Counted from the first letter of the stretch, positions 45,083 to 62,893 are shown. The stretch is 64,000 nucleotides of DNA from Bacteroidota bacterium (GCA_016193485.1 JACPRZ010000043.1:96944-160943), one strand, 5' to 3'. Numbers and translations are program-made. Notes: generated by a model not told the origin, from the sequence alone.

Positions 45083-45194
45083 AAAAAAAGAAAATAAATC
45101 GTTCCTCAACGAAAAGAAGAGTTTAATAATAAAAAACCGTACACAGGAGACAATAAAAAAATAAGCAGCAGCGGCAGAAAAAGAAGTAAACACA

Positions 45195-45446
45195 ATGAAA
45201 CTATCTGATCATGCAAAAAACAAACTTGAAATATACAATATAAATGAGGATGAAGTTATCAGCAAATGCAACAAGCAGATTTATGAATTTTACGATACAA
45301 AGGAGGAGTCGCACATAAAAATAATTGAACTGCAGGAAATACTTTTTGCAGTAGTTTATAACAATAAAGCGCAAATGATAGTAACGGTGTACAGAACAGA
45401 CCGAAGAACAATAAACAACAGGCAAAAAAATAAAAGATGGATTTAA
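45195..45446 (+). CDS. DUF4258-like small toxin-like protein
   Basis: 83 aa; LSDHAKNKLEIYNINEDEV...MIVTVYRTD pattern resembles DUF4258; overlaps the next ORF by 10 nt. Confidence 0.45.
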   Translation: MKLSDHAKNKLEIYNINEDEVISKCNKQIYEFYDTKEESHIKIIELQEILFAVVYNNKAQMIVTVYRTDRRTINNRQKNKRWI

Positions 45447-45661
45447 AACTTAAATACGGAACATTTAAAAAGCGTGTTGACAGCGAAACCGGCAGCATCC
45501 TTTTTTACAGAGATGATATTAAAGGGCTGCCTGATAAGGTTTATCAGGGGGATGGATTTACTGTTGAAGTAAAAAACAGCCAAATATATCTCATTGACAT
45601 TTTTAATGCCGAAAAAGTACTGAACAACTTGCTGAAAAGCGTAAAAAAAGAAGTTGCGTAA
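45437..45661 (+). CDS. DUF2283-like small antitoxin-like protein
   Basis: 74 aa; ...GDGFTVEVKNSQIYLIDIFNAEKVL resembles the DUF2283 C-terminal beta hairpin; translationally coupled to the preceding ORF. Confidence 0.45.
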   Translation: MDLKLKYGTFKKRVDSETGSILFYRDDIKGLPDKVYQGDGFTVEVKNSQIYLIDIFNAEKVLNNLLKSVKKEVA

Positions 45662-45719
45662 AAAAGAGAAAGTCCCGCTGTGCAGAATTTTGGTGCTCAC
45701 TATAATTTTCGTGATGTTG

Positions 45720-45744
45720 GGTGCCTGCCGGACAGGCAGGCACC
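45720..45744. repeat. perfect palindrome ggtgcctgccggacaggcaggcacc
   Basis: 10-bp stem; shares the caggcagg/cctgcctg core with 24011-24031 and 37746-37806. Confidence 0.55.
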
Positions 45745-46298
45745 TGACGCCACGTGAACACTCATAATCACTTACCTCGCATAACAGGAAAAGAAAAGGA
45801 AAAACAAACATCCCATGGGCAAAATAAAACAACATATAGAAATAGGCGAAAAAAAGTACCGGGCGCTATTTGACCCCGAATCCGCAAGTATACAATGAAG
45901 CACATCATTTATTTGAGTGAATCGTTTCAAAGTGAACATGCGGATACGGGGTTTGATACCGGTGCGCGCAATAATTAAGCACGCCAAACCAACTCCGGTT
46001 TCAGGAAATATCTGCTGAATTGAATAAGTTTATACCATTGCGTATAATACCAAATGGTATAAAACATGAAAGATTCCCCATTTATTTATGGTTCTACAGT
46101 AAGCGGACATTCATTTGCCTAAAGGCAAACTTGAAATGGACAAACTAAAAATTTGTAACTGCCTCCCGTGCAAAGTTTGCAGATTCCTCCAGGATGGTCT
46201 CCTCTTCATTTAATACGTAACGGACTTTGATTTGTCCACAGCGGCCATGCTGGCAAGTATACGGATCAGCCCATTATCCGGCAAATTGCTTTTGGCAT

Positions 46299-46314
46299 CC
46301 CGATATCTATCGGG
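46299..46314. repeat. palindrome cccgatatctatcggg
   Basis: Identical core to 57961-57976; related to 34572-34589; preceded by ggcat as in the element at 1291-1314. Confidence 0.55.
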
Positions 46315-46615
46315 GTCAAACACCATCAGTATTGAAAACATCACTGCCGGTATTATTCTGTCTTTTACCATGTAAAAAGTGTCCTGCAATCCGCAAAAAG
46401 CATATAAATGAAACATTTGGCAATAATAACCGTATAACCAGAGGTTGGTGCTTATTTCGTCAGCACTAAATTTAAAAGGGTTGTCATTTTAATAAATATT
46501 GTTATATTTGCCACGATGATAATTCTGGATTTTTTTAATAGCACACTGAAATAATCACGAACCTTGATTTTAAAGAAAAAGATTTTTATTCCGGTCGCAC
46601 ACAATTAAGATCTTT

Positions 46616-47314
46616 TTGTATCACAATCCTTCAACCCCGATATTTCCAATGAAAAATTCTGTTCGGATTTTTATGGTATTTGTTTTATTTTATACGGGTC
46701 AGATTATTTTTGCCCAGGAAAGAAGCGTTGAAAGTATTAATACCTCAACCACAAAAGATGTCATTAAACCTGAAAGCGTAAAATATCTTCAAATGGAAAA
46801 AAGAACAGCCGGTGATTATCCATTCCCTGAAAACAGTAAAAAATCCGGAGTTCAAAAAGAAGAAAAAACAGGTTCTGCCTCCCGCCAGGAAGTTTTTATT
46901 GACGTATCCGTAAGGGAATGTGATATTTTTAAAAGCCCGGTTGTTGCAAAATATGTTTCGCCCGAAAAACTTAATAATATCCGGTTAAAAAATCCCGGTA
47001 ACCTGAACCATATTGATTACTATTTTAATAAATCGTTCCTGTTTGAACTTATCCCCGGAACCGTGTGCGACCAGAAGATTATAAATGAGTTCATCGCAAA
47101 TTTCGACCCCTATAAATATGAACCGCAACGAAAAGAAACGGAAAAAGCCGTTATTGAATTTTCCGAATACGGAGTAAAAGTAATTCTGTTACCCAAAAGT
47201 GAAATGCCTGTTGAAGTTCAGAAGTACATTGCTAAACGGGAAAAGGGTGGCTGTATCGGTTGTATTAACGGCAGGCCAATGCCGCAAAAAGCCGGTAGCA
47301 TAAAAAATAAGTAA
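46616..47314 (+). CDS. hypothetical secreted protein
   Basis: Signal peptide (MKNSVRIFMVFVLFYTGQIIFAQ from the internal Met); ends 10 bp before the giant adhesin gene. Confidence 0.5.
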   Translation: MYHNPSTPIFPMKNSVRIFMVFVLFYTGQIIFAQERSVESINTSTTKDVIKPESVKYLQMEKRTAGDYPFPENSKKSGVQKEEKTGSASRQEVFIDVSVRECDIFKSPVVAKYVSPEKLNNIRLKNPGNLNHIDYYFNKSFLFELIPGTVCDQKIINEFIANFDPYKYEPQRKETEKAVIEFSEYGVKVILLPKSEMPVEVQKYIAKREKGGCIGCINGRPMPQKAGSIKNK

Positions 47315-47323
47315 CAAGGTATT

Positions 47324-50300
47324 ATGAGGCGATATTTACTTTTTTGTTTATCTGTTCTCAGCACATTTTTGCCCCGTTTTGTATTGGCGCAGGCGGATAA
47401 TTGCAATACCCCCGCCACTACATTAACAGTTTATCCTGCTGTTTGCACTCCTTATTCCGGTTCTACTACTGGCGCAACACCTTCTTCGGGCCCTGCCTCT
47501 ACTTGCGGAAGCACTGATGACGATGTTTGGTTCAGGTACACTACTGCAGCCGGAAGCAGTTACGCATTTTTATATGTTGATCCTGCAAGTTCCGGTTTTG
47601 ATCCTGCTTTCCAGGCATTATCAGGCGCTTGTGGCTCTCAGGCAGTTCAGGCATGTGTTGACGCCTATGCCGGAGGCCAGGGTGAATCAGTAACATTAAC
47701 CGGATTAAGCGGAAGCACTACTTATTATATCCGTGTTTTCAGTTATGGTTCCGGCAGCGGAACAGACGGCTCTTTTACCGCGTGTGTTTTCAATGGAGCG
47801 CCTCCTGCCAATGATGTTTGCGGAGTTGCTACATCAGTTACTCTTACACAAAACGCTACTTGCTCGCCTACAGCCGGAACAACTGCCTGGGCGACTACTT
47901 CTGCAGGCATTCCCGCATGTGTGGGTACTGCCGATGATGATGTTTGGTATAAATTTACCACAGGTGCAGGAGTTACTTATGAAAGAATTGTGGTAGACCC
48001 AACCGGAAGTGGCGGAGCCGATTTAGAGTTTGACCCTGTAGTTCAGGTATTTTCCGGAACATGTGGCGCCTTTGTCAGCATTGCCTGCCAGAATGCAGTT
48101 GGTGCCGGTGGGACTGAAGATTTTTTTGTTAGCGGATTAACAGGCAGTACCACTTATTATGTCAGAGTTTATCACTATGGCTCATGGTATGCGAATAGAA
48201 CCGATGGAGGAAGTTTTGATATTTGTGTGATGGGCGGTTCTCCTCCTGCCAATGATAATTGTGCAGGCGCTCTGGCTCTTCCAACTAATCCCGGTTGTGT
48301 TGTTTTTGGAGGTTCTTCTACCACAACTTTTGCAACACAATCCTCTACGGGTACTCCTTGTTCCGGCTATAGCATTGATGACGATGTATGGTACAGTTTT
48401 GTGGCTATTAATTATACCCATACTCTTACGGTTGACCCAAATTCTGCAATGAATGTGCAGATTCAGGTGTTATCTGGCGCCTGCGGTTCTATTCTCTCTG
48501 AACAATGCCAGGATAATGCAGGGATAGATGGTACCGAAACAATGGTAGTGACCGGATTGACCATCGGCAATACTTATTATGTGAGAATAAGCCATAATGG
48601 AACTTTTTATGGCAGCAATGGTTCTTTTACTATTTGCAATGTGGCGAGCGCTCCCGTTGGAGGTGACGACCTTTGCAATGCAGTTGCATTACCGGCAGTA
48701 ACCTCTGCCTGCACTTATGGAACTTATGATAATTCTTCTATGCCCACCGGCTCAGGCGCGCTACCTGCAGGATGCAGCGAAAGGGCTAATGGATTCAGGA
48801 GACACATGTGGTTTAAGTTTGTTGTTCCAACCGGTGGAAAAGTCAGCATAAATGTAAAAGGTCTTACCGGGAATATTACAAACCCCACTGTGGCCGCTTT
48901 CTCATGGAATGGAGGGGCCTGTGGCACCCTTACTAATTTTACATTACTTTCCTGCAATAATGATTTTTGCAATGTTAATGGGGATTGTAATTACCATTCC
49001 GTACTGAATTTATCCGGATTATCGGTAGGGGCGACCACCTATTTCAAAGTATCTTCCGCTTCAACAGATAATGGAGCCGGAACATTTAAAATATGTGTTT
49101 CAGCGCCACTCAATGACGGTTGTCCTGCACCTCTTTTTGTTTGTGATTTAAATGGTTTTGAAGGCACCACCAGCGCAGGTTATACAATTGATAATGGAGG
49201 TCTTGAAGGATGGAGCGGAGGACCCTATGGTACGGGAGGAACAACCATTGAAAATAATTCATGGCTGCAATTTGAGGCATCTGATGTGAATGCATCCATT
49301 ACAATTACGGTATCTGATTGTTATTTGGATGATGGTGGTGCCGGGGAATATCAATATAATTGTTGTGGCGGTCCAGCCGGTTTTAACGGTGGAGGGCTTC
49401 AGGCGCAAATACTTGCCATGAATGGCGGAAATTGTTCGGGTTCTGCGGGATGGACTGCTATGTCTGTATTTCTAAATGGCATCAATGGTCCTAATTTCGG
49501 ATTAAACGGAACTTATACTGTTACCAACACCTCTGCTCTGACTGTTGGTCAGATTTACTATATTATGTTTGACGGCTTTGCAGGCGATGTTTGTAATTAC
49601 AAAATCAATGCGGCTACAGGTGTCGGCACTACTGTTATTGTAACCCCCCCGAGCAGCACCACTAATATCTGCAGCGGCAGTACGGCTACATTGGCAATTA
49701 ATCCGGTTGGTTCGGGAGGTACGGTAAACTGGAGTTCCTCTCCTTCCGGGTATGTATGCAATAATTGCGGTTCATCAGTGGTTGTTGACCCTGCTGCTTC
49801 TCCTGGCGTTACGGATGGTACAGTAACTTATTATGCTACGGTATCCGGCAATTGCATCACACCGCAAACAGTATCGGCAACTGTGAATGTAGAGCCAACT
49901 CCACCCACTCCAACGGTTGTTGCCGATCCACCCGGTTTTTGCGGGGTTACCAGCGTTTCCATGACCGCCTCTGCTGCCAACGCTACCGATTACGAATGGT
50001 TTGATGCCCTTGTCGGAGGCAATTCATTAGATGTTGGTCCGGTCTTCACTCCGGCAATAACAGATAATCAAATCGGTTCCTATACCGTTTATGTTGCTGC
50101 ATATAACACATCAGGTTCTCCCACTTGTACCACAGTAACGCGAGCCACGAAAACAGTAACCATTAATGCCTGGGATGGAAAAATAAAGTGGACAGGAAAT
50201 GCCCCTGCTGCTACTCCCAACTGGACAAATACTCTTAATTGGGCAGGTTGCACTCCGGGTTGCGCTGATGCCGTTGGTGTAATTATTCCTGACCAAACCA

Positions 50301-51808
50301 CGGTTCCCGGTCCGAATGACTGGCCTGTTATCAGCAGCAGCGTGACCACCGACAGTTTAAAATTAGAACCAAACGGAAAACTGGAATTCATTGGAGGCGC
50401 ATTGAGCATCTGCGGTTCATTCGGACACTTTGGAATAATAACTATTTCAGGTGGTGTGCCGACAATCACTTTTAACGGTACGACAAAACAATTTTATATA
50501 AAAACATCTACCGGCACGGGTGATTTACCTAATGTTGTTATCAACAATGCAGCGGGAGTCAGAGTAGTGGATGGTGCAGGTAATAAGGATATGGATATTG
50601 GAACCGCATACATTTTAACTTTAACAAATGGGATTTTAACTTCCACAAACACCCGGACGGTAAATGTTAAAAACAGCGCTGTTGGCGCAGTTACCGGATT
50701 CGGAACATCTTCTTATGTTGCAGGTCGCCTACAAAGGGCTATTACGGGAGGATTTCCAAAATCTTATGATTTTCCTGTTGGGACTTCCAGCGGTTACGAG
50801 TTGATGAATATTAATTTTACGGCAGGCACCACCATTACAAGCGCAACCGTCTATTTTGAGAAACCATCAAACGCACTGGGCACGGGACTAAGTGCCCTAT
50901 CCGAAGGCGGTGCATCTTTTATTACTACCGTTCCCGGTATTGTCGATGCAGGGGGTGGCACAAACGGAGGATTATGGACGGTATTGGCAAGCGGAGGAGT
51001 TGCCAATTATGATATGACTTTGTATGGCAGAATATATTCTAATGCAGGCGGATTTACCCACACCATTGTAAAAAGGGACCCGTTTTGCCCAGGCAACTGG
51101 ACCCTGTCGGGAACTTATGGCGGCAGTTCGGTTGGCGGAGGAATCATTACCGTAACACGAACCGGAATGAACGGCTTTTCGCAGTTTGGCATTGGCAGGC
51201 ACGATGCGGTATTTCCTATATCCCTGTTATTCTTTAATGCCGTATGCACGAGCAGGGGAATTGAATTATCATGGATAACCGCCAGTGAAATCAATAACGA
51301 TTATTTTACAATTGAAAGAGCAGCCCCCTCCCAACTTCCCCCATCAGGGGAGGGGATGAATTGGACTGTTATCGGAACAGTTAAGGGAGCAGGCAATAGT
51401 TCTACGATTCGCAAATATGAATTTACCGATCCCCTCCCCGATAGGGAGGGTAATGGAGGGGCTTTCTATTATCGCCTTAAACAAACCGACTTTGACGGTA
51501 CCCATGAGTACTTTGATGCCGTACCTGCCGATTGCAATTCGGAAAATGAATTCAAGGTCATTAACATAATACCTAACCCGGCCAAAGACAATATTTACAT
51601 CCTCTTTAGTTCAGGGAAGAAACTCACCGATGTGACAATTGTATTATTTGACGTGCTGGGTAATTATGTGATTAAAGAAAAATTTTTACCTATTGAGGGC
51701 TTTAACAGCAGGGAGGTTGACTTAAGTTTCCTGAATAACGGGGTGTACGTAGTGAATGTAAATAACGGAACAACCAATTTTATTCAGAGAATAGTGAGAC
51801 AGGATTAA
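47324..51808 (+). CDS. giant secreted repeat protein (adhesin-like) with T9SS type A C-terminal sorting domain
   Basis: Signal peptide; about four N-terminal repeats with PPAND(N/V)C...DDDVW(Y/F)...TYY(I/V)RV; C-terminus KVINIIPNPAKDNIYILF...GVYVVNVNNGTTNFIQRIV is a T9SS tail. Confidence 0.8.
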   Translation: MRRYLLFCLSVLSTFLPRFVLAQADNCNTPATTLTVYPAVCTPYSGSTTGATPSSGPASTCGSTDDDVWFRYTTAAGSSYAFLYVDPASSGFDPAFQALSGACGSQAVQACVDAYAGGQGESVTLTGLSGSTTYYIRVFSYGSGSGTDGSFTACVFNGAPPANDVCGVATSVTLTQNATCSPTAGTTAWATTSAGIPACVGTADDDVWYKFTTGAGVTYERIVVDPTGSGGADLEFDPVVQVFSGTCGAFVSIACQNAVGAGGTEDFFVSGLTGSTTYYVRVYHYGSWYANRTDGGSFDICVMGGSPPANDNCAGALALPTNPGCVVFGGSSTTTFATQSSTGTPCSGYSIDDDVWYSFVAINYTHTLTVDPNSAMNVQIQVLSGACGSILSEQCQDNAGIDGTETMVVTGLTIGNTYYVRISHNGTFYGSNGSFTICNVASAPVGGDDLCNAVALPAVTSACTYGTYDNSSMPTGSGALPAGCSERANGFRRHMWFKFVVPTGGKVSINVKGLTGNITNPTVAAFSWNGGACGTLTNFTLLSCNNDFCNVNGDCNYHSVLNLSGLSVGATTYFKVSSASTDNGAGTFKICVSAPLNDGCPAPLFVCDLNGFEGTTSAGYTIDNGGLEGWSGGPYGTGGTTIENNSWLQFEASDVNASITITVSDCYLDDGGAGEYQYNCCGGPAGFNGGGLQAQILAMNGGNCSGSAGWTAMSVFLNGINGPNFGLNGTYTVTNTSALTVGQIYYIMFDGFAGDVCNYKINAATGVGTTVIVTPPSSTTNICSGSTATLAINPVGSGGTVNWSSSPSGYVCNNCGSSVVVDPAASPGVTDGTVTYYATVSGNCITPQTVSATVNVEPTPPTPTVVADPPGFCGVTSVSMTASAANATDYEWFDALVGGNSLDVGPVFTPAITDNQIGSYTVYVAAYNTSGSPTCTTVTRATKTVTINAWDGKIKWTGNAPAATPNWTNTLNWAGCTPGCADAVGVIIPDQTTVPGPNDWPVISSSVTTDSLKLEPNGKLEFIGGALSICGSFGHFGIITISGGVPTITFNGTTKQFYIKTSTGTGDLPNVVINNAAGVRVVDGAGNKDMDIGTAYILTLTNGILTSTNTRTVNVKNSAVGAVTGFGTSSYVAGRLQRAITGGFPKSYDFPVGTSSGYELMNINFTAGTTITSATVYFEKPSNALGTGLSALSEGGASFITTVPGIVDAGGGTNGGLWTVLASGGVANYDMTLYGRIYSNAGGFTHTIVKRDPFCPGNWTLSGTYGGSSVGGGIITVTRTGMNGFSQFGIGRHDAVFPISLLFFNAVCTSRGIELSWITASEINNDYFTIERAAPSQLPPSGEGMNWTVIGTVKGAGNSSTIRKYEFTDPLPDREGNGGAFYYRLKQTDFDGTHEYFDAVPADCNSENEFKVINIIPNPAKDNIYILFSSGKKLTDVTIVLFDVLGNYVIKEKFLPIEGFNSREVDLSFLNNGVYVVNVNNGTTNFIQRIVRQD
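51321..51465 (+). repeat. two GC-rich palindromic mini-insertions lying in-frame inside the adhesin gene
   Basis: ccccctcccaacttcccccatcaggggagggg (51321-51354) and cccctccccgatagggagggtaatggagggg (51429-51465) encode extra residues (APSQLPPSGEGM; PDREGNGGAF) absent from the paralogous module in 39696-41339. Confidence 0.5.
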
Positions 51809-52604
51809 ATGAAACGGATACCATACATAACTATCATTTTACTAACCGCAGCAGGGTTGTGCAGCAATTTCATCATGGCACAAACTTACCTAATTTCTCC
51901 GACTGGCGATGGGGGATTTGAAACCGGAACCACTTTTGCAGCCAACGGATGGACTGCTGTAAATGGTGGTTCAGATAATTGGCAGGTTGGTGGTGCGGCA
52001 GGCGTTCAGGGTGGGGCACGTGCATCTAAATTCCACAACATATACTGCTTCAGGTGCGGCTACTGTGGTGCATTATTACCGTGATATAGCCATTCCTGCA
52101 GGTGCAAATTATGTATATCTTAATTATTACCTGAAATATCCCACCATAGATAACACTTATGATTATTTCTATGTTTATAGAACTACTACAGGCAATACAC
52201 CTGTAGCCGGTACTGTCCCTGGAGCCGGATACACAAACTTGTTTACTAATACAGCCACAACCTATGCTGGTTATACAGCAATGCCACAAGTTGACCTCAC
52301 CGCACTGGCAGGCACAACAGTTCGTTTGGTTTTTACTTTTAAAAATGACGGAGCATCACCATATGCCGACCCTGCTGTTGATAATATCTCACTGACTTAT
52401 TGTAATCCTACTACTTCACTTTCCCCTACGGGTGATGGGGGATTTGAAACCGGAACCACTTTTGCAGCCAACGGATGGACTGCTGTAAATGGTGGTTCAG
52501 ATAATTGGCAGCGCTCCCACCGACCCTGCAAACGGAACTTCCTACACTGCCAATGCCGCTTATGGTTCAGGAACAGCCGTAGGAGGAGGATTTTGCGTGT
52601 ATAA
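51809..52604 (+). pseudogene. 5' part of a giant GEVED-domain adhesin gene disrupted by frameshifts (signal peptide plus MAM/choice-of-anchor-J-like domain)
   Basis: Three overlapping ORFs in different frames; peptide SPTGDGGFETGTTFAANGWTAVNGGSDNWQ encoded twice by a direct repeat (51908-51985 and 52434-52511). Confidence 0.5.
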
Positions 52605-55600
52605 TAGTACAGGCACTTCGGTTGCCATTACTGCATTAACTGCGGGTACTACCTATTATTACAATATCTACGAATATGCCACTGCCGGCACGTGTTATAA
52701 TCTTACCGAGTTAGCCGGCAATGCTGCCACATCAGCCCTTCCTTCAGCAGCAGGGGCAATTTCAGGAACTGCCACTGTTTGCCAGGGAGCAAGTGGTGTG
52801 GCTTATTCCGTAGGAGCAGTCGGGGGCGCCACAAGTTATGGATGGGCATACTCTGGCGCAGGGTACTCTTGTGCGTCTGGTTGTGCTACAAATTCCATCA
52901 CTGCTAATTTTTCCGGTGCTGCTACCTCCGGCAACCTCACCGTTTATGGAATCAATGCCTGCGGCAACGGAACAGCATCAGCCAATTATGCAATCACAGT
53001 AAATTCAATTCCCGGCACAGCCGGAATATCATCGCCTTCCAACGGAGCCACCAATCAATGCTCTGCAAACCCAATCACCTCTTTGAATTGGACTGCCGCA
53101 TCGGGTTCTCCAACGGGTTATAAACTTTATTTCGGAACAGATAATCCGCCAACAAATATTGTAAATGGCACAAATCTGGGAGCAGTATTAACCTATACGC
53201 CTGCCTCATTAAATTCCAACACACTTTATTATTGGAAAATTGTGCCTACCAATGCCTGCGGAGATGCCACAGGCGCTTCTGTTTGGAATTTCACTACCGG
53301 AACGCCATGTTATTGCGCTTCAAACGGTGGTACTTGGACCGATGAATGGCTTGCACGAGTACAAATGAATACAAGTCCGGCACTGGATAATAACAGCGGA
53401 GGACCTCCGGCATCCGGATACACTAATTTTACAGGACTGGGTCCGTACACAGTGAACCCCGGCAGCACTTATAATTTTACAGGAACTGTCGGGTCTTCAG
53501 GTTCATGGAGTGAATATATAAGGGTTTATATTGACTGGAACCAAGATGGCGACTTTATTGACGCGAATGAATCTTACGACATTGGCTCAAGAACAGGCGC
53601 AGGAACAATAGTCAATACAATACTGGTACCCGCAGGCGCAACAGTTGGCGCAACAAGAATGAGAGTTATAGAAAAATATAGCGGATATGCTACGTCATGC
53701 GAACTGTATAGCTATGGCGAAACCGAAGATTATACTATCACAGTTGCAACCGCCTGCACCCCCCCCACCACACAGGCATCCGCATACACTTCAAGTAACC
53801 TTGCCAACACCACTATGACTATTGGCTGGACAAGAGGCAATGGAAACAATATAATGGTAATAGCCCGTGCCGGCAGCGCACCCACCGACCCTACAAACGG
53901 AACATCCTATACTGCTAATGCCAATTATGGTTCCGGAACAGCCGTTGGAGGAGGGTTTTGTGTATATAATGGAACGGGAACTTCTGTAAACCTCACCGGA
54001 CTCACGGCAAATACAATGTACTATTTTGCCCTGTATGAATATAACACAGCAGGCACTTGTTATTATATGACTGAATTAACCGGCAGTACTCAAACAGCCA
54101 ATAACGGTAATGATGTAAATCATCCCGGAGATGGCGGTACTGCTACCTATTACCAATGCTCCGGTAATTATTACGACCCGGGAGGACCGGGGGCGGGAAA
54201 TTATGCCGATAATATTACTGTTTCAACAACTACTTTTTATCCCTCCACTTCCGGAAGCAAAGTATCGCTCTTCTTTACTGTTTTTGATACCGAAAATAAT
54301 TATGACGGACTGATGATATATGACGGACCAAATACCGGCTCACCCCTTATTTCATCAGGATTAGGTGTCGGAAGCAATGCCACCACTTGTCCTGCGGGCT
54401 CATGGCGCGGCACCGGGTCGCCAGGCACCGTAACTTCCACCCATGCCACAGGCGCTTTAACTCTTGTTTTTAGATCCGATGCTTCGGTTAATTCTACCGG
54501 ATGGGCGGCATCTATTTCCTGTATTTCCTCCTGCACCCCGCCCACCACCCAGGCAACCTCCTTTACCTCAAGTTCCATTGCTCAAACTACTATGACCGTT
54601 GGCTGGACAAGGGGCAATGGCAATAATGTAATGGTAATAGCCAAAGCAGGTAGCGCACCCACCGACCCTACAAGCGGTACTTCCTACGCAGCCAATGCCG
54701 CTTATGGTTCAGGAGCAGCAGTAGGCGGTGGATTTTGCGTGTATAACGGTACAGGCACTTCGGTAAATCTCACTGCGCTTAGTTGTCTCAATACCTATTA
54801 TTTTGCTATTTATGAATATGCCACGGCCGGTACTTGTTACAATTTAACAGAATTAACCGGTAGTGCAGCCACCGTTCCTCCCGGTAACCAAACTACTTAC
54901 GGAGCAGGTACATGGATAGGATATGTTTATACATGGTCCGGTTCTCCGGATTTTACACCTGGTAACTATAAGGGATATGTTACCCAGGCAACTACTTTTG
55001 ACAGGAACCCGGCAGATGTAGCGGCTGGAGGAAACATTTGTGGCGGTCCTTATACTGATAATTTCACGATTCGATTTAAAATGAATTATAATTTCCCTGC
55101 AAACAATTATGTTTTCACTATCGGTGGTGATGATGGAGTAAGGTTGAGCGTAGATGGAGGTAGCACATGGATTATTGATGGATGGTCAGACCATGGTTAT
55201 ACTACGTACTCAAATAATCCTTGTGTTATTTTGAATGGTTCTACCAATCTTGTTTTTGAATACTATGAAAATGGTGGAGGCGCCCGTGTTTCCTTTTCAT
55301 ACACAACTGTCGGGGGTAGTTGTTATTGCGCTGCTGATGGCGCTACCTGCGATGAATACATTGGTAATGTAACGGTTGGAAGCATCAATAACAGCACTGC
55401 CTGTACCACTACTCCACAGGGATATGGCGACTATACAGGACAATCTACCGCAATGAATATTGGAACAGGATATTCAATAACTGTTACAAATGGGAATGGT
55501 TATGCAGATGATCAATGCGGCATCTGGGTTGACTGGAACCAGGATGGTGATTTTGCAGATGCCGGTGAAACAATCAGTGTTACGGGTACTCCCGGCTATG

Positions 55601-56619
55601 GTCCCTATACCGCCACCATAACACCTCCCGGAACTGCAACAGCGGGTAATACAAGAATGAGGGTTAGAATCCACTATAATGATGAATCTTCTTCTTCCTG
55701 CGGTTCGGCTGTTTGGGGCGAAGTGGAGGATTATACCATTAATGTTCTTGGTTGCGTGGCTCCAACCACTTCTGCAACTTCCATTACTTTTCCAAGTGTA
55801 CAATGCACGCAAATGAATGTAAGTTGGACAAACGGAAACGGAGGCAGAAGAATAGTGGTTGCCAAAGCAGGAGCAGCGGTTGCCGGAAATCCGGTTGACG
55901 GTACTGATTATGCCGAAAATTCTTCCTTTGGCACGGGAGGTACAATTGCAGCAGGTGAATATGTTGTTTATGACGGCACCGGCTCAGGTTTTACGCTTAC
56001 CAATCTTGCAAGCGGTACAACTTATTATTTCAAAGTGTTTGAGTATAATTGCACAGGGGCAAATATAAAATACCGCACTACTTCTCCGCCCTCTGCCAGT
56101 CAGGCGACCAACTCCCTGCCTGGAACTCCAAGTGTAATTAGCGGTTTGCAAGGTGTTTGTATTTATCAAACCGGAGTTTCTTATTCGGTAACTATTGCCG
56201 GAGCAACGAGTTATACATGGTCGTATTCCGGAACCGGATTCACCAATACATCCGGCAATGTAAATCCTATTGCTGCCGATTTTTCCGCCACGGCCACTTC
56301 AGGCAATTTAACAGTATATGGTACCAGCGCTTGCGGCAACGGACCAACCTCCGCTGCATTGGCAATAACTGTAAATACCACCCCCCCCACCTCTGTTGAT
56401 GCAGGCGAAGACCAGTATATCTGTGCAAATCCCGTTACAATGGCTGCAACCGGCACAGGAACCTGGACTGTATTGAATGGAACCGGTACCATCACTACTC
56501 CGTCAAATCCGACAACTACGGTAACAGTTACCAATCCTTCTACCTCTGTTACTTTCCGGTGGGGAGCCACCAACGGCTGCGGCACATCCTACGATGAAGT
56601 GGTAATTAACAGGCAGTAA
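52489..56619 (+). CDS. giant secreted repeat protein with FN3-like repeats and GEVED domains (main body of the disrupted adhesin gene)
   Basis: Three repeats of GSAPTDP(T)NGTSYTANAxYGSGTAVGGGFCVYNGTGTSV; GEVED-type modules ending YGETEDYTITV and WGEVEDYTINV; ends abruptly (VVINRQ*) without a T9SS tail. Confidence 0.65.
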   Translation: MVVQIIGSAPTDPANGTSYTANAAYGSGTAVGGGFCVYNSTGTSVAITALTAGTTYYYNIYEYATAGTCYNLTELAGNAATSALPSAAGAISGTATVCQGASGVAYSVGAVGGATSYGWAYSGAGYSCASGCATNSITANFSGAATSGNLTVYGINACGNGTASANYAITVNSIPGTAGISSPSNGATNQCSANPITSLNWTAASGSPTGYKLYFGTDNPPTNIVNGTNLGAVLTYTPASLNSNTLYYWKIVPTNACGDATGASVWNFTTGTPCYCASNGGTWTDEWLARVQMNTSPALDNNSGGPPASGYTNFTGLGPYTVNPGSTYNFTGTVGSSGSWSEYIRVYIDWNQDGDFIDANESYDIGSRTGAGTIVNTILVPAGATVGATRMRVIEKYSGYATSCELYSYGETEDYTITVATACTPPTTQASAYTSSNLANTTMTIGWTRGNGNNIMVIARAGSAPTDPTNGTSYTANANYGSGTAVGGGFCVYNGTGTSVNLTGLTANTMYYFALYEYNTAGTCYYMTELTGSTQTANNGNDVNHPGDGGTATYYQCSGNYYDPGGPGAGNYADNITVSTTTFYPSTSGSKVSLFFTVFDTENNYDGLMIYDGPNTGSPLISSGLGVGSNATTCPAGSWRGTGSPGTVTSTHATGALTLVFRSDASVNSTGWAASISCISSCTPPTTQATSFTSSSIAQTTMTVGWTRGNGNNVMVIAKAGSAPTDPTSGTSYAANAAYGSGAAVGGGFCVYNGTGTSVNLTALSCLNTYYFAIYEYATAGTCYNLTELTGSAATVPPGNQTTYGAGTWIGYVYTWSGSPDFTPGNYKGYVTQATTFDRNPADVAAGGNICGGPYTDNFTIRFKMNYNFPANNYVFTIGGDDGVRLSVDGGSTWIIDGWSDHGYTTYSNNPCVILNGSTNLVFEYYENGGGARVSFSYTTVGGSCYCAADGATCDEYIGNVTVGSINNSTACTTTPQGYGDYTGQSTAMNIGTGYSITVTNGNGYADDQCGIWVDWNQDGDFADAGETISVTGTPGYGPYTATITPPGTATAGNTRMRVRIHYNDESSSSCGSAVWGEVEDYTINVLGCVAPTTSATSITFPSVQCTQMNVSWTNGNGGRRIVVAKAGAAVAGNPVDGTDYAENSSFGTGGTIAAGEYVVYDGTGSGFTLTNLASGTTYYFKVFEYNCTGANIKYRTTSPPSASQATNSLPGTPSVISGLQGVCIYQTGVSYSVTIAGATSYTWSYSGTGFTNTSGNVNPIAADFSATATSGNLTVYGTSACGNGPTSAALAITVNTTPPTSVDAGEDQYICANPVTMAATGTGTWTVLNGTGTITTPSNPTTTVTVTNPSTSVTFRWGATNGCGTSYDEVVINRQ

Positions 56620-56656
56620 TTTTGTTTTAAAAAAAGCGATTGATTTAAGTTTATTT

Positions 56657-57682
56657 TTGCAACCTTCCAATCCCAATATGGGCGCTTACATCAAAGCCAT
56701 AAGTTATTACCTGCCTGAAGAAGTTCTTACCAATGCTGATTTAGTGAGGATTTTTCCTCAATTAACTGAAGTTGAAATTTTCAGGGCGACAGGGATTAGG
56801 AAAAGGCATATCACTCCACACGGCATCATTGGTTCTGATCTGGCATATCTAAGCGCCATTAAATTTTTTGATGAACATCCAATAAAAAAAAAAGAGATTG
56901 ATTTTTTACTTTTTTGCACCCATGGATCAGATTATAATGGGCCCTCTTCCGCCTGCATTTTACAAGATAGAATCGGATTGCCGAACCATTGCGGTGCAAT
57001 GGACATTCCTTATGGTTGTACCGGCTTTGTTTATGGAACCGCCATAGCGAAATCATTAATAGAAAGTAACCTCGCAAAAAATGTTTTACTGCTTACCTCA
57101 GATATTCCCACAACGGTTATTCGTCCGGAAAATCATGAGTTAAGGGCAATTTTCGGTGATGGAGCTGCCTGTACCCTTTTTTCCATTTCAAAAAATAATT
57201 CCTCAATAGGTGATTTTGTTTTTGGAACAGATGGCAGGGGTGCGAAAAACCTCATAGTCAGAAATTCAGGAAGACGGGAACCGGTAACTATGGAATATCT
57301 TGAAAAAAATTCGGATGCCGGGGGAATGTTAAACGGAACAATGGAAATGAATGGTGCTGAAATATTTATCTTCGCGGTTAAAGTGGTTCCGACCATGGTA
57401 AAACAGGTGCTGGAAAAAAACAATCTGCAACAGGATGATATTGATTTATTCATATTTCACCAGGCAAGCGGATTTTTATTGGAAATCCTCAGGAAAAAAT
57501 TAAAAATTCCGAAAGAAAATTTTTTTGTTTATCTTGAAAATGTAGGGAATACCGTTTCGGCAACAATACCGATCGCCCTGAAGGAAGCGATTAAGGAAGG
57601 AAAAGCGAAAACGGGCGATAAAATCCTTCTTGCCGGTTTCGGAATCGGATATTCATGGGCAGGAACGGTAATACAATTGTAA
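56657..57682 (+). CDS. 3-oxoacyl-ACP synthase III (FabH-like, KAS III) family protein
   Basis: Active-site Cys context DIPYGCTGFVYG, His in LFIFHQASGF, Asn in LENVGNTVSATIP. Confidence 0.8.
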   Translation: MQPSNPNMGAYIKAISYYLPEEVLTNADLVRIFPQLTEVEIFRATGIRKRHITPHGIIGSDLAYLSAIKFFDEHPIKKKEIDFLLFCTHGSDYNGPSSACILQDRIGLPNHCGAMDIPYGCTGFVYGTAIAKSLIESNLAKNVLLLTSDIPTTVIRPENHELRAIFGDGAACTLFSISKNNSSIGDFVFGTDGRGAKNLIVRNSGRREPVTMEYLEKNSDAGGMLNGTMEMNGAEIFIFAVKVVPTMVKQVLEKNNLQQDDIDLFIFHQASGFLLEILRKKLKIPKENFFVYLENVGNTVSATIPIALKEAIKEGKAKTGDKILLAGFGIGYSWAGTVIQL

Positions 57683-57687
57683 TTCAG

Positions 57688-57945
57688 ATGTCGGACATCA
57701 ATGATTTTATTAAAAAAATTGAAGCGGAATTTGAAGAAATTTCCCCGGGTTCGCTTAACCCGGGAACTAATTTCCGTGAGATGAAGGATTGGAGTTCCAT
57801 GCACGCGCTTATCATCATCGCCCTCATTGATACTGAATATGGCATCTCGCTCAATGGTGAACATATGCGTTCTGTTTCCACCATAAAAGAATTATTTGAT
57901 TTAATCGGTAAAAAAAAAGTAACCCAGCAACATATTAATGACTGA
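57688..57945 (+). CDS. acyl carrier protein-like
   Basis: 85-aa acidic protein; helix II-like region MKDWSSMHALIIIALIDTEYGISL with candidate phosphopantetheine Ser; start taken at internal ATG 5 nt after the KAS III stop. Confidence 0.55.
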   Translation: MSDINDFIKKIEAEFEEISPGSLNPGTNFREMKDWSSMHALIIIALIDTEYGISLNGEHMRSVSTIKELFDLIGKKKVTQQHIND

Positions 57946-57960
57946 AAACTTGCCACTGAT

Positions 57961-57976
57961 CCCGATATCTATCGGG
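57961..57976. repeat. palindrome cccgatatctatcggg just after the ACP gene
   Basis: Identical to 46299-46314. Confidence 0.55.
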
Positions 57977-58203
57977 ACAGATTAAAAACAAAATAGATAT
58001 ATGTCTGAATTGTTATTCAAAGTGGAAACTCACAAAATAATGCGAACCCTAAATTATCTTGCTGCTTCCAAACTAAAAGTCGGATTAATCGTAAATTTCG
58101 GGAAAGATTTTTTAGAATGGAAAAGATTAGTATTATAAAAAATAATCCGTGCAATCAGTGGCTGCATTTTTTTTCTACTGAGTAGGCACAAAAAAAATCC
58201 TGA

Positions 58204-59265
58204 ATGGCGGTTTTTTCAATACCCGGTGCAAAAATTTCTGGAATATCCGCCTGTGTTCCTTCTGAAATCAGGTATACGAAAAATTACGACAGGATGAGCG
58301 AAAATGAAAAGAATCTCTTTATTAAAACGGTAGGAGTTGAAAGCCGAAGAGTAACCGGAAAGGGAATGACAACGCTTGATTTATGCGTAACAGCAGCCGA
58401 AAAACTTATTACTGAATTGGGATGGAACAGGAATGAAATTGAACTGTTGGTTTTTATCACTCAATCAAAAGATTATTACCTGCCCGGTAACGGCACCATT
58501 GCTCAGGATAAATTACGGCTAAGCAGGAATTGCATGGCATTTGATATTGGTCTTGGTTGTTCGGGATATATCTACGGGTTATCAGTGGCTGCAAGTATTT
58601 TGCGGGCTGCCGGAATTAAAAAAGCATTGCTGCTGGCAGGAGATATTTCCACCGTTAACACTTCGTACGAAGATAAAAGCGTATTTCCTTTATTTGGCGA
58701 TGCCGGCACTGCAACAGCCATTGAAAATAGTTCTGATTCCGGGAAATGGAGTTTTAATCTTTTCAGCGATGGTTCAGGGTTTGAATCCATCATGATCCCC
58801 GATGGCGGAATGAGAAACCGGATTTCGCAGGATTCATCGTTTGTTTACCGCACTTTTGAAAATGGAAATTCGCGGACTCCCTTGCATCTGGCGCTAAAAG
58901 GGATTGACATTTTTAATTTTTCCATCGGTGAAGTTCCCCGTTCTGTCAGAGAACTTTTGGCCTTTGAAAACAGAACTATCGGAGATTTTGATTATTTTAT
59001 CCTTCACCAGGCAAATAAACTGATGAATGAAACCATTCGTAAAAAACTCGGTATTGAAAAAAATAAAGTTCCGTATTCAATTCAAAAATTCGGAAATACA
59101 AGTTCTGCATCTATTCCTCTTACTGTAGTTACTGAACTGGGTCAGAAGGCAAGAGAAAATAATCTCTCGCTGTTTTTGAGCGGTTTTGGCGTTGGATTAT
59201 CATGGGGAAATGTATCGTTGAATACAAATCATATTGTTTGTCCTGAAATAATTAATGCCGGCTGA
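58204..59265 (+). CDS. 3-oxoacyl-ACP synthase III-like (KAS III family) protein, second copy
   Basis: Active-site Cys context FDIGLGCSGYIYG, His in FILHQANKL, Asn in QKFGNTSSASIP. Confidence 0.8.
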   Translation: MAVFSIPGAKISGISACVPSEIRYTKNYDRMSENEKNLFIKTVGVESRRVTGKGMTTLDLCVTAAEKLITELGWNRNEIELLVFITQSKDYYLPGNGTIAQDKLRLSRNCMAFDIGLGCSGYIYGLSVAASILRAAGIKKALLLAGDISTVNTSYEDKSVFPLFGDAGTATAIENSSDSGKWSFNLFSDGSGFESIMIPDGGMRNRISQDSSFVYRTFENGNSRTPLHLALKGIDIFNFSIGEVPRSVRELLAFENRTIGDFDYFILHQANKLMNETIRKKLGIEKNKVPYSIQKFGNTSSASIPLTVVTELGQKARENNLSLFLSGFGVGLSWGNVSLNTNHIVCPEIINAG

Positions 59266-60005
59266 TGATTGATTTAACCGGAAAAAATATTTTGATAACC
59301 GGTGCATCGTCCGGTATTGGAAGGGAAACGGCTATTCTGGCCGGTAACCTTGGTGCCGTGGTAACGGTGACGGGGAGAAATAAGAACCGCCTGGATGAGA
59401 CATTTCAGCGGCTTAAAGGGAAAAATAACCTGCAGTTTGTTGCCGATTTATCGGAAGAAAAAAATATCGTTGAACTTACCGGGCATCTTCCGGAATTTGA
59501 CGGGATTGTTCATTGTGCCGGAATAACCAGTCCGATGCCGGTAAAATTCATCAGGGAAAAGCATTTGCAGGAAGTTTTTAAAATAAATTATTTCGCGTCT
59601 GTTTTACTGACCGGATCTCTTTTGAGCAAAGGGAAAATCAAAAATGCTTCTTCCATTATCTTTGTATCATCCGTATCCACTCAACTGCCTTATTTCGGGG
59701 GAACAGCATACATTGCTTCAAAAGCGGCAACCGAATCCTATTGTAAGACATTGGCTTTTGAATTGGCCCCGCAAAAAATAAGGGTGAATTGCATTTCACC
59801 GGGATTGGTAAGGACCGCAGTATATGAAGAGATGAGAACCGGTTACGGAGACGAAAAAATGGAGGAATACGAAAAAAAATACCCGCTCGGGTTTGGCAAA
59901 CCGGCTGATGTTGCCAATGCCGTTGTTTTTTTACTTTCGGATGCTTCCGGTTGGATTACCGGCACCATAATCAATCTTGACGGAGGATTATTACTTGGCA
60001 GATGA
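59265..60005 (+). CDS. SDR-family oxidoreductase (ketoreductase-like)
   Basis: Rossmann motif ILITGASSGIGRE; catalytic YIASKAA (YxxxK); 1-nt overlap with the upstream gene. Confidence 0.85.
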   Translation: MIDLTGKNILITGASSGIGRETAILAGNLGAVVTVTGRNKNRLDETFQRLKGKNNLQFVADLSEEKNIVELTGHLPEFDGIVHCAGITSPMPVKFIREKHLQEVFKINYFASVLLTGSLLSKGKIKNASSIIFVSSVSTQLPYFGGTAYIASKAATESYCKTLAFELAPQKIRVNCISPGLVRTAVYEEMRTGYGDEKMEEYEKKYPLGFGKPADVANAVVFLLSDASGWITGTIINLDGGLLLGR

Positions 60006-60922
60006 AACCCGCAGCGTATTCCATTATCATTCCCGTTTATAATGGCGGAAAATTTTTGCCTGAACTTTTCCATCGGTTACTGACCATATGCAAAAATTAT
60101 GAAAAAACCGAAATAATTTTTGTGGATGACGGAAGTTATGATGACAGTTGGAAGGTAATTGAGAAAATCAAGGAAGAAAACAGCGATTTGGTTACCGGAA
60201 TAAAACTCTCCAGAAATTTCGGACAGCATAACGCCACTATGTGCGGGTTTTACCATTGCACCGGTGATTTTATTATTACCATTGATGATGACCTTGAGAT
60301 GCTGCCGGAAGATATTCCTCTTCTCATTGAAAAGCAAAAAGAGAATAATGCCGATCTGACTTATGGCATCAATGATAATTTTTCACACATTTCGCTTCGC
60401 GGGCTGCTTACCGCCACCTACAAACGTGCATCCTTACTGGAGGGGAGGTACAGGGGGAAAGGATCAGGTTTCCGGCTTTTAAAAAAATCTCTTGTTGAAA
60501 ACATTAAGAACAATACGGGGAATTTTGTTTTTATTGATGAATTTTGCATGTGGTACACTTCCAATATTGATTATGTAAATGTTCAATCTTCTTTTTCAGG
60601 AAAAAAGAAAAGTTCGGGTTACACCCTGGCTAAATTATCCGCGCTTACAAGAAAATTAATTGTCATATCCACTGTTATTCCCCTGAGAGTAATTACTAAT
60701 CTCGGCTTGATTGTGGCTGTAATAAATTTATTGCTGGGAATGAGAATTATCATTAAAAAACTCTTTTTCAACGTTCCCCTCGGGTACACTTCTATTATTG
60801 TGGGCATCTTATTTTCCACCGGGTTAATTATGTTCAGCATCGGTATTTTGGGAGAATACCTTGGCATTGTCGTTCGCTCCGTTACAAAAATGCCGCCATT
60901 CAATATTGATAAAAAAATATGA
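60002..60922 (+). CDS. GT2-family polyprenyl-phosphate glycosyltransferase (GtrB/ArnC/DPM1-like)
   Basis: YSIIIPVYNGG...IIFVDDGSYDDS...ITIDDDLE (GT-A DxD fold) with two C-terminal TM helices. Confidence 0.8.
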   Translation: MKPAAYSIIIPVYNGGKFLPELFHRLLTICKNYEKTEIIFVDDGSYDDSWKVIEKIKEENSDLVTGIKLSRNFGQHNATMCGFYHCTGDFIITIDDDLEMLPEDIPLLIEKQKENNADLTYGINDNFSHISLRGLLTATYKRASLLEGRYRGKGSGFRLLKKSLVENIKNNTGNFVFIDEFCMWYTSNIDYVNVQSSFSGKKKSSGYTLAKLSALTRKLIVISTVIPLRVITNLGLIVAVINLLLGMRIIIKKLFFNVPLGYTSIIVGILFSTGLIMFSIGILGEYLGIVVRSVTKMPPFNIDKKI

Positions 60923-61527
60923 AACTGGAACAGTACGGAATAACCCTTTCAAGAATTACATCCGATGATATTGAATTGGTGAGAAACATGAGAAATGCAC
61001 CGCACGTCAGAAGCACAATGGCTTACCGGAGGTATATTACGAAATCAATGCAAAAAAAGTGGTTTGAACGTGTAAATAATCCGCTGAATTATTATTTGCT
61101 CATCTCGTATCGGAATGAAAAAATCGGAGTTATCAACATTAAAAATATCCGCTTGGATGAAAAATGGGGCGAAGGAGGTATTTTTATTCATGAAAAAAAT
61201 TACTGGAACACTCCTGTTCCGGTGTTGGCTTCACTGTGCCTGCTGAATTTTATTTTTTTTCAGTTAAAAATAACCGATAAATCATTCATAAAAATTTTAA
61301 AAGATAATTTGCCTTCCATCCGTTACAATAAAATACTTGGCTATGTTTTGGTCCCTTATCAGGAAAAAAAGAAGAATCAGCTCTATGTGCTCACTAAAGA
61401 TGCGTACATTGAAAAAACCGAAAAACTCCGTAAAGCCGCAACCATCTTTTCTGGTGATACTGAATTACCGAGATTAACCGGGGTAAAAAGTCCGTTGAAT
61501 CTTGAACAAATGAACATCATGCTTTAA
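60919..61527 (+). CDS. GNAT-like N-acetyltransferase (PseH-like), tentative
   Basis: LSRITSDDIELVRNMRNAPHVRSTM...WFERVNNPLNYYLLISYRNEKIGVINIKNI resembles the PseH/sugar N-acetyltransferase pattern; 4-nt overlap with the GT2 gene. Confidence 0.45.
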   Translation: MKLEQYGITLSRITSDDIELVRNMRNAPHVRSTMAYRRYITKSMQKKWFERVNNPLNYYLLISYRNEKIGVINIKNIRLDEKWGEGGIFIHEKNYWNTPVPVLASLCLLNFIFFQLKITDKSFIKILKDNLPSIRYNKILGYVLVPYQEKKKNQLYVLTKDAYIEKTEKLRKAATIFSGDTELPRLTGVKSPLNLEQMNIML

Positions 61528-61576
61528 AAATATCCTGACGTTCTACCCCTGGGGTATTTATTCACAAGTATAAATA

Positions 61577-62809
61577 TTACTTAAGCACATCTGCCAAACA
61601 CACAGGAATAAGTTTATTATCTTTTATTGTTACGTCAGGACAATTTAAACAATATTCAATTTCGCCATCATAAGTAACATTTGGCCCTTGCTGAAAGATC
61701 ATCGTTTTAAAATTCAGTGTAGAACCTGGTTTTAACAAGTTGGACAGAAATAATATTGTCTTCATTATTGTTAAAGGATTTAAACTGAACAATGCATACA
61801 ACAAACACTTGTAAAATATTTTTTTCTTGTTCCAGATAATATCAAAAGGATACTTTCCCGTTTTTTTTATATGCAACTGATTTCCAACTTTTGCAATATG
61901 TTTAAAATCAATATTCGTATGCAATAGTTTTGTTTTGCAATTTTTTAATTGGATAACAAATGTTAAATAAAATATCCATCTTTTCTCGGATATATTTTTA
62001 GTTGATGGGATATAACCATATGGTAATAAATTAAACTGATGATTTAAATATGCAATAACTTCTTCATTCAAAACAACTTCATTGTCTAAAATTGTAGGTA
62101 CAAGCCGGTTAGGCAGGATTGAGGATTTCGGGATATTGTTTGCAATTAATTCAAAATCCGTACAGCAGGTAACCAATAATGATTGATGCATTTTATTGTT
62201 AAAGAAGCAAGAAATAAATTCGCTAAAATTCGCCAAATCGCTTTTATACAAAGTTATTTCAAGTGCACACCGTATTCCGTTTTTAATAATCTTGTTTGAT
62301 ATATTTGTGCGTAATTCTATCAGATCCTTTCTGTCGAAATTTTCTTTCAAATCCGGTCTTTTTTGGTGCTCATCAATATGAAGAAAAATCTTATTTATTT
62401 TTGATTTTTTATACTCGGCAAGCTTTTTATCAGTTAATGCAAAACCGTTACTTAATACATCAACCAAAATCCCTTTATTTGAAATATATTTAATGACTTC
62501 TGATAATTCCGGGTGTAAAGTGGGTTCTCCGCCAGCAAGTGTTATCAAATGTAAATTTCTCTTTGTTATAATAAAATCAATTTCATTTTTGATGATTTCC
62601 AGAGGTTTTGTATAGTCAGATTGGTCTTTGTAACATGCTTTACAGGAGATATTGCATTTTTGATTTACTTCAATTACGGCATGAGGAATATTTTTCCCGC
62701 TAAATGGCATTTTATAGAGTTTATTTACTGCCACTGTATTTTTAATCTTAGGATTCATAATTATACAATAATAAAACAAACTTATTAATAACTTTATGAC
62801 ATAGGTCAT
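61577..62809 (-). CDS. radical SAM protein with Cys-rich C-terminal (SPASM/twitch-like) region
   Basis: CNISCKACY (CxxxCxxC) followed by a GGEP-type motif (LAGGEPTLHP); C-terminal cysteines (VTCC, EYCLNCPD...PVC); AT-rich. Confidence 0.7.
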   Translation of the reverse strand: MTYVIKLLISLFYYCIIMNPKIKNTVAVNKLYKMPFSGKNIPHAVIEVNQKCNISCKACYKDQSDYTKPLEIIKNEIDFIITKRNLHLITLAGGEPTLHPELSEVIKYISNKGILVDVLSNGFALTDKKLAEYKKSKINKIFLHIDEHQKRPDLKENFDRKDLIELRTNISNKIIKNGIRCALEITLYKSDLANFSEFISCFFNNKMHQSLLVTCCTDFELIANNIPKSSILPNRLVPTILDNEVVLNEEVIAYLNHQFNLLPYGYIPSTKNISEKRWIFYLTFVIQLKNCKTKLLHTNIDFKHIAKVGNQLHIKKTGKYPFDIIWNKKKIFYKCLLYALFSLNPLTIMKTILFLSNLLKPGSTLNFKTMIFQQGPNVTYDGEIEYCLNCPDVTIKDNKLIPVCLADVLK

Positions 62810-62893
62810 GTATTTTGAGTGCCTTTTTATTGAATTTTGGTTTTAAGTAAAATTTGTAGTAAACATTCATATTTTTGGGGGTAACTATATACA

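Follow-up and report, generated by a model that had tools for sequence, protein, structure and literature searches.

The stretch of DNA analyzed here is a 64,000-nt window of a metagenome-assembled genome (MAG) of a Bacteroidota bacterium (GCA_016193485.1, JACPRZ010000043.1:96944-160943), and all positions are given in its numbering. Between 51809 and 56619 it carries the gene for a giant GEVED-domain protein, and every feature of this locus lies on the plus strand. Three consecutive open reading frames (ORFs) cover the gene, at 51809-52084, 51963-52604, and 52489-56619, and translation places them in three different frames, confirming a preliminary description in which the gene start was spread over three frames. 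In the window version, translation from the native start yields no more than ORF1 (91 aa); this ORF comprises a signal peptide and the start of a MAM-like domain and has neither an NCBI annotation nor an entry in the protein collection searched. The predicted Sec signal peptide, MKRIPYITIILLTAAGLCSNFIMA (51809-51880), was read from the translation, where an initial MKR, a hydrophobic core, and an end in …NFIMA are recognizable by eye; cleavage after IMA would leave Gln as the first mature residue, and homologues share this start, with Gly or Ala before the Gln. ORF2 (213 aa) is identical to NCBI MBI2968056.1 (hypothetical protein HYY40_09610; P0001 in our collection) and is an artefact of two frame breaks. 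ORF3 (1376 aa), identical to MBI2968057.1 (HYY40_09615), forms the body of the giant protein. The two NCBI entries are fragments of one gene.

The first frame break falls within the N-terminal MAM-like (jelly-roll) domain, which spans 51896-52403, ends in ...AVDNISLTYC, and matches InhA-like_MAM with an E-value of 8e-5, too weakly to pass the Pfam cut-off. On either side of the break this domain aligns, at 44-57% identity and over its full length, to the N-terminal domains of giants on contigs L003-L014. Three-frame translation, homologue alignment, and reconstruction place the break at TCTAAAT (52025-52031), where removal of one A of 52028-52030 in a reconstruction rejoins frames A and B into a single open frame. 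The homologues are colinear over both frame-break sites, and both shifts in the window are +1 and do not compensate for each other. Relative to intact homologues the frame is thus disrupted by two +1 shifts, as would apply to an inactivated allele.

The second break lies at the end of a direct repeat. As had been described, the same peptide is encoded twice by identical DNA, in an exact 78-nt repeat at 51908-51985 and 52434-52511, a match that was not found once in 100 shuffles. Homology extends upstream to 92 nt at 96% identity (51894-51985 and 52420-52511), and none of the four additional differences (T>C, G>T, T>G, and C>T), which fall at third positions of SPTG codons, alters the encoded residue. 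Copy 2 keeps the frame of the MAM-like domain before it, and the sequence after it is in another frame. Reading across the junction gives …AVDNISLTYC-NPTTSL-SPTGDGG…DNWQ and then, out of frame, GSAPTDP…, which corresponds to about residue 40 of an FN3-like unit when compared with the units at 53755 and 54532. Alignment with these internal units thereby bears out the claim that the second repeat copy joins mid-domain onto an FN3-like unit. At the nucleotide level the junction is GATAATTGGCAG followed by CGCTCCCACC (52500-52520), where the end of copy 2, AATTGGCAG, runs into CGCTCC. Copy 2 stops in GGCAG exactly at the start of the internal FN3-like repeat family D1 (52507, 53872, and 54649), and hence FN3-like unit 1 lacks its first ~40 residues.

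An independent assembly contains an intact version of this junction. The same organism is present at 100% identity in the Logan assemblies of SRR12113421, SRR12113425, SRR12113428, and SRR12113433. In a groundwater study, each filter was assembled with MEGAHIT 1.2.9 and scaffolded with IDBA-UD (PMC7906910). From run numbers and locus-tag style, we infer that the window MAG and the four runs belong to that study. Logan contig L015 (5628 nt, SRR12113425) is identical to the window over 52507-57981 (5475 nt, 100%, 0 differences). In place of window positions 52404-52506 it carries 123 nt that encode SSCTPPTTQATSFTSGSIGCTSMTVGWTRGNGNNVMVIAKA, in frame with the 1376-aa body, and SSCTPPTTQATSFTSGSIGCTSMTVGWTRGNGNNVMVIAKA is the missing N-terminal half of FN3-like unit 1. 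The 123-nt segment is 74-78% identical to the matching part of FN3-like units 2 and 3, and the rest of unit 1 is equally diverged from them, indicating that the segment is the piece that belongs to unit 1 rather than a paralogue joined by mistake. In the homologues on L003 and L011, too, a MAM-like domain is followed directly by this FN3-like unit. When one A is removed at the first break and the 123 nt of L015 are restored, the gene reads as a single ORF of 1609 aa.

L015 begins at 52374-52403, the last 30 nt that it has in common with the window, and this 30-mer is unique in the window. With a Logan k of 31, these 30 nt equal k-1. A contig start k-1 before the point of divergence indicates a branch in the assembly graph, with the linker and the FN3 continuations both present in SRR12113425. 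L015 is unbroken at 52507, which suggests that the junction between repeat and FN3-like unit is absent or rare in that run. Thus, the second junction of the window was not reproduced in independent data, where L015 carries the intact in-frame sequence instead. The preliminary description had offered a pseudogene, repeat recombination, or assembly collapse; for the 5' end these were the right alternatives, and L015 narrows them to one haplotype or an artefact, since an intact junction means that the lesion is not fixed.

Comparison with L015 also isolates a novel segment between the MAM-like domain and copy 2. These 30 nt, AATCCTACTACTTCACTTTCCCCTACGGGT (52404-52433), encode the P/T-rich NPTTSLSPTG, are absent from L015, and have no other match within the window; we read them as a linker plus the diverged start of a second MAM-like domain. 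An initial model, in which a 92-nt patch overwrote the FN3 start and CNPTT was equated with CTPPTT, was dropped because L015 reads LTYC-SSCTPPTT at this place, showing that the 30-nt linker is foreign to the FN3-like unit. A second copy of the repeat is therefore present, as noted before, but not as a simple insertion into the FN3-like unit, since it is accompanied by the novel linker. Together, the linker and the synonymous divergence of the SPTG codons suggest that the gene has a form in which two MAM-like domains stand in tandem. Reconstruction of such a form yields a clean ORF of 1784 aa, and the window sequence equals this form minus about 545 nt between two GGCAG pentamers. At this illegitimate junction, the pentamer at 52507-52511 provides a 5-nt microhomology, both closing the repeat and occurring in the L015 version of the FN3-like unit.

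ORF3 ends at 56619 with VVINRQ and a stop codon, two residues past the last strand of an ordinary repeat-type Ig-like domain. This terminal domain, TPPTSVDAGEDQYIC...CGTSYDEVVINRQ plus the stop codon, occupies 56380-56619. As had been stated, no type IX secretion system (T9SS) sorting tail follows: Pfam (E≤5) and NCBIfam (E≤1) searches of ORF3, its last 79-239 aa included, returned neither PF18962/TIGR04183 nor PF13585/TIGR04131. The preliminary description had counted the abrupt C-terminus among the lesions, and this claim is not supported. From the stop codon through the spacer and the KAS III gene that follows, both L015 and L016 (1889 nt, SRR12113428) match the window at 100% identity. Moreover, four of the best ORF3 homologues, which come from other metagenomes, finish with this same ~80-aa domain and stop at the equivalent position: P0121 in …CGTSYDDVIIVRQ, P0133 in …CGNIYDDVMIIRQ, P0129 in …CGYDDVVVIVE, and P0172 in …SDDIVIYTQ, with a shared pattern …YDDVxIxRQ. 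Neither PF18962 nor PF13585 appears in the precomputed Pfam lists of these proteins (0 of 4), and genes follow downstream on L021, L022, and L023, showing that the termini are not contig-end truncations. At 56.6 kb there is no break in composition beyond the ordinary drop from a Gly/Thr-rich gene to its neighbours. Exact reproduction in two assemblies, the shared terminus, and a conserved two-gene layout (see below) establish that genes of this conserved family normally end here, and that the 3' end is not a product of decay or collapse. Long reads with a normal T9SS tail are thus not to be expected, and the missing tail in MBI2968057.1 should not be read as a truncation. The Ig-like fold of the terminal domain is a very common internal repeat, with up to 58 copies per protein in a representative search, and the matches listed, mostly multi-copy arrays, gave no sign of a dedicated sorting role. 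A dedicated signal is thus not obvious in a fold so common inside proteins, even though its terminal placement is conserved.

Downstream of the stop codon, an intergenic spacer of 58 nt (56620-56677), equal in length in L015, separates the giant gene from the KAS III gene (56678-57682), which was identified by Pfam, is present as the exact protein on two Logan contigs, and marks the end of the locus. The distance of 37 bp given earlier holds for a TTG start at 56657, but an independent gene call uses the ATG at 56678, 58 nt after the stop. The spacer holds TTTG…TATTTTTG, which presumably resembles the Bacteroidota -33/-7 promoter pattern (consensus TTTG / TAnnTTTG). The KAS III gene opens a cluster at 56678-61527 that encodes KAS III, acyl carrier protein, a second KAS III, an SDR/ketoreductase, a GT2 glycosyltransferase, and a GNAT acetyltransferase, and whose product may be an unusual lipid or glycolipid.

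The conserved layout involves the gene immediately upstream. This partner (47324-51808; 1494 aa; NCBI MBI2968055.1) carries a type A T9SS tail, Por_Secre_tail, at residues 1415-1491 (Pfam; TIGR04183), which scored E-values of 1.6e-11 and 6.9e-8 in the same Pfam and NCBIfam searches that gave none for ORF3. Between the partner's stop codon and the giant gene's ATG there is no gap (TAAATG). Residues 782-1494 of the partner are 36% identical (E ~1e-100) to the products of the upstream genes on L021 and L022 and 37% identical to that on L023; overall, identity to the upstream proteins is 36-37% over 400-750 aa, with E-values from 1e-57 to 1e-107. In every homologous locus the giant gene directly follows a type A-tailed gene. 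The module lies at 47324-56619 in the window, at 5088-14165 on L021, at 115-8562 on L022, at 2-3686 on L023, and at the locus of P0121, where protein order alone was used. The pairing of a tail-less giant with a type A-tailed partner, a grouping defined in this analysis and not a named family, therefore recurs at five loci from unrelated metagenomes, with the terminal motif AGxDQY[IL]C...FRW...CG..YDDVxIxRQ. We found no description of it in the literature, and we regard it as a modest lead rather than a finding. Speculatively, and with low confidence, the tail-less giants might constitute a distinct class of T9SS-associated surface proteins, in which the terminal Ig-like domain would act as an unrecognised sorting or attachment signal or would dock onto the upstream tailed protein, and in which the polymorphism between intact and broken forms would amount to on/off variation of the module among members of a population. 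Should the pairing have a function, it would be relevant to the way in which Bacteroidota export or anchor proteins that lack a known T9SS signal.

Between its two ends the giant protein is a mosaic of repeated modules. Pfam searches of ORF3 detected GEVED twice (E 2e-38) and PKD_6 twice and confirmed the FN3-like units, while matches to CUB-like and PA14-like domains were weak. GEVED (PF20009) scored 131.5 bits against a gathering cut-off of 24.4, in two stretches, and the four FN3-like units are internal DNA repeats of 75-79% identity. According to a motif search, from which all module coordinates were taken, the truncated FN3-like unit 1 (52507-52734) is followed by a first PKD_6 (52741-53007), an FN3 domain (53008-53301), GEVED module 1 (53305-53745), FN3-like unit 2 (53755-54096), a CUB-like domain (54118-54528), FN3-like unit 3 (54532-54876), a PA14-like domain (54883-55311), GEVED module 2 (55318-55746), FN3-like unit 4 (55753-56115), and a second PKD_6 (56116-56379), which adjoins the terminal domain. 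Judged by these modules, the intact gene would encode a Sec-exported giant mosaic protein of about 1600-1800 aa, predicted to reside at the cell surface, in the order signal peptide, MAM-like domain, a stalk of FN3-like, PKD_6, and Ig-like domains with two GEVED modules as well as CUB-like and PA14-like ones, and terminal Ig-like domain.

Scans of genome and metagenome contig collections with the N-terminal domain recovered only relatives at 54-66% identity, with neither a close orthologue nor a copy of the source genome among them. Its closest relatives, P0003 (59%; L001, 10001-16583) and P0006 (54%; L002, 10001-14377), are also split into several ORFs; their assemblies look long-read (contig_29011 and a 2.6-Mb contig), and the splits are probably indel errors and not biology. 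Both were rejected as intact references for this fragmentation. When the region 51809-52604 was compared with P0026-P0098, the MAM-like domain was found most commonly as a stand-alone secreted protein of ~285 aa with the order signal peptide, MAM-like domain, Por_Secre_tail. Because it mostly stands alone yet also caps giants, the domain behaves as a mobile module.

How did the 5' end come to be broken? As posed, the question concerns an ordinary event in a known kind of gene, one that is common in the MAG consensus of repeat-rich surface genes. With modest confidence, we favor the reading that the window represents a real haplotype in which the giant gene has recently been inactivated, and that the window junction exists in real DNA. 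Translation would stop after 91 residues because of a 1-nt frameshift near 52028-52030. The other lesion would be a deletion of about 545 nt, mediated by microhomology (GGCAG...GGCAG), in a version of the gene carrying two MAM-like domains in tandem; all that remained of the second domain would be its first 26-30 codons, which, with the linker, were joined out of frame to the middle of FN3-like unit 1. Another haplotype of the same groundwater population would retain the MAM-to-FN3 junction intact and in frame. The window junction is probably real, given that the novel 30-nt linker is beyond what an assembler can invent and that the junction and the intact sequence have no more than 5 nt in common, so that a de Bruijn assembler such as MEGAHIT probably has no route across it unless reads contain it. 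A 5-nt microhomology is typical of biological deletions and would arise at a blind join only about once in 1000. Furthermore, a 78-nt repeat should be resolved by typical Illumina reads, consistent with an unbroken contig of 292 kb. Two lesions lie within 500 bp, and the other 4.1 kb contain neither a stop nor a difference from L015, a distribution that fits recent inactivation; the frameshift, as a second lesion in the same gene, fits relaxed selection.

Several observations weigh against a disrupted haplotype and lend themselves to a second explanation, namely local misassembly of the MAG around a possible tandem MAM-like duplication, in which the gene (signal peptide, MAM1, NPTTSL, MAM2, FN3) would be truly intact. 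The assembler would have traversed an exact repeat of ~496 nt once, re-entered it via the linker, and been misjoined to a downstream contig with the loss of about 545 nt, and the 1-nt frameshift would be a second small error. Both the junction and the first frameshift come from a single MAG assembly, and no independent contig spans the frameshift. The clean 1784-aa reading of the two-domain form speaks for this explanation, and repeat-rich adhesin genes are classic sites of misassembly, with an exact tandem of ~496 nt lying beyond short reads. A two-domain genome that has no edge from repeat to FN3-like unit, with no deletion haplotype in SRR12113425, predicts, and most simply explains, that L015 starts 30 nt (k-1) before the divergence and continues unbroken through 52507. 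The exact repeat of 78 nt equals k-1 for k = 79, a default MEGAHIT value, and a unitig that ends inside a longer collapsed tandem repeat would stop at k-1. However, given good coverage, assembly at k=99-141 ought to have extended a unitig end at k=79, sequences overlapping by 5 nt are not joined by any standard de Bruijn or scaffolding step, and a blind join would share 5 nt in only about 1 in 1000 cases. The window contains no Ns, its contig runs for 292 kb, and switching between in-frame domain copies makes no 1-nt frameshift. To judge by run numbers and locus-tag style, the MAG was presumably produced with MEGAHIT and IDBA-UD. A type IIG gene near 26.4 kb in the window is apparently frameshifted as well, which hints that the assembly may carry small indel errors. 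On balance we regard misassembly as possible but doubtful.

The alternatives that make the lesion permanent or regulated fare considerably worse. A fixed, decaying pseudogene, broken at its 5' end and truncated at its 3' end with loss of the T9SS tail, would account for the three frames, for the lack of a C-terminal domain (CTD) match in ORF3, and for the separate annotation of ORF2 and ORF3 as hypothetical proteins at NCBI. It is largely refuted, and very improbable, given the in-frame junction in an independent assembly, a 3' end that is the conserved natural terminus in five loci with conserved synteny, and 1376 codons without a stop that are 100% identical between assemblies. Regulated on/off switching, whether by recombination of the 78-nt repeat, slippage, programmed ribosomal frameshifting, or a diversity-generating retroelement, is disfavored still more strongly, to the point of being hardly credible. 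In its favor, phase variation often affects surface adhesins, two haplotypes (L015 and the window) appear to coexist, and a perfect 78-nt direct repeat could recombine. Yet a repeat-to-repeat deletion would give the signal peptide, the repeat, ...RSHRPCKRNFL..., and a stop, with the frame still broken, and the two +1 shifts offer no compensation. The frameshift site TCTAAATTCC contains only A3, with neither a simple-sequence tract nor an X XXY YYZ heptamer. Against a retroelement, the 78 nt are identical and the four flanking differences are not adenine-specific. Neither a reverse transcriptase nor an invertible segment turned up at the locus in a repeat scan, in a reading of its sequence, and in the ORFs examined, the rest of the window and some neighbouring ORFs not having been scanned for reverse transcriptase.

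Elsewhere in the window, the type IIG restriction-modification/methyltransferase gene mentioned above is probably split by a frameshift (minus strand, 24225-27288). Its two ORFs, 26383-27288 and 24225-26465, overlap by 83 nt, and the downstream part matches N6_Mtase and Eco57I. The shift lies at or near the T6 run GATTTTTTCTTCTGG, near 26.4 kb, where the upstream frame ends in …DNDFFFWLPGIN at a stop codon and the next frame continues with …ELIDLDTRHALGEYYTP; the split could reflect phase variation, a pseudogene, or an indel error. Also on the minus strand, 15128-18505 and 19183-22539 encode two paralogous proteins of ~1120 aa with Reg_prop/Y_Y_Y domains and a C-terminal SpoIIE (PP2C phosphatase) domain, which replaces the usual kinase/HTH output. 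Just upstream of the two giant genes, ~1.5 kb (45082-46616) contain no ORF of at least 150 aa and have a G+C content of 32-41%; the ORFs flanking this interval (42869-45082, 737 aa, and 46616-47314, 232 aa) gave no Pfam match. Beyond the KAS III cluster, G+C falls sharply to 27-31% at 61500-64000, compared with 38-51% in the preceding 15 kb, and this segment, which holds a radical SAM gene on the minus strand (61577-62809), may be foreign DNA.

Set beside known systems, the window junction resembles the microhomology deletion alleles and strain variants of surface genes in its 5-nt microhomology, its out-of-frame product, and the occurrence of an intact junction in otherwise identical sequence. 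It differs in being known from assemblies and not from reads, and its putative two-domain parent is a reconstruction rather than an observed allele. Among relatives of the N-terminal domain, the small proteins of ~285 aa (signal peptide, MAM-like domain, Por_Secre_tail) and the giants on L003/L011 and L005-L008 have N-terminal domains 35-66% identical to that of the window gene. L003 and L011 also share its order of MAM then FN3-like domains, whereas L005, L007, and the ~285-aa proteins, whose C-termini are visible, carry a type A tail, unlike the giant. None of these relatives has two tandem MAM-like domains.

The giant resembles T9SS cargo in belonging to a Bacteroidota MAG, in a putative N-terminal Sec signal peptide, read by eye, followed by Gln, in containing modules that also occur in tailed proteins, and in its type A-tailed neighbour. 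In type B T9SS proteins (P0135, P0198, and P0203), an Ig-like domain of this kind even directly precedes the sorting domain. However, their type B motif, ...PNGDGxNDxF..., is absent from ORF3, and the giant has neither a type A (TIGR04183/PF18962) nor a type B (TIGR04131/PF13585, CHU_C) tail, and its ending is conserved at five loci. Lacking a sorting domain, it falls outside T9SS cargo of both known types as these are defined. CshA-like fibrillar adhesins with a GEVED domain (PF20009), lastly, combine a binding module with a stalk in a mosaic layout (PMC10952558). From these the giant differs in that a CshA NR2-type domain was not detected in it, in its Gram-negative context, with no LPXTG or cell-wall anchor motif found in the protein, and in an N-terminal tip formed by a MAM-like jelly roll whose score stays under the Pfam threshold. 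It matches them in its two strong GEVED matches within a stalk of repeated domains, an architecture from which an adhesive function is predicted.

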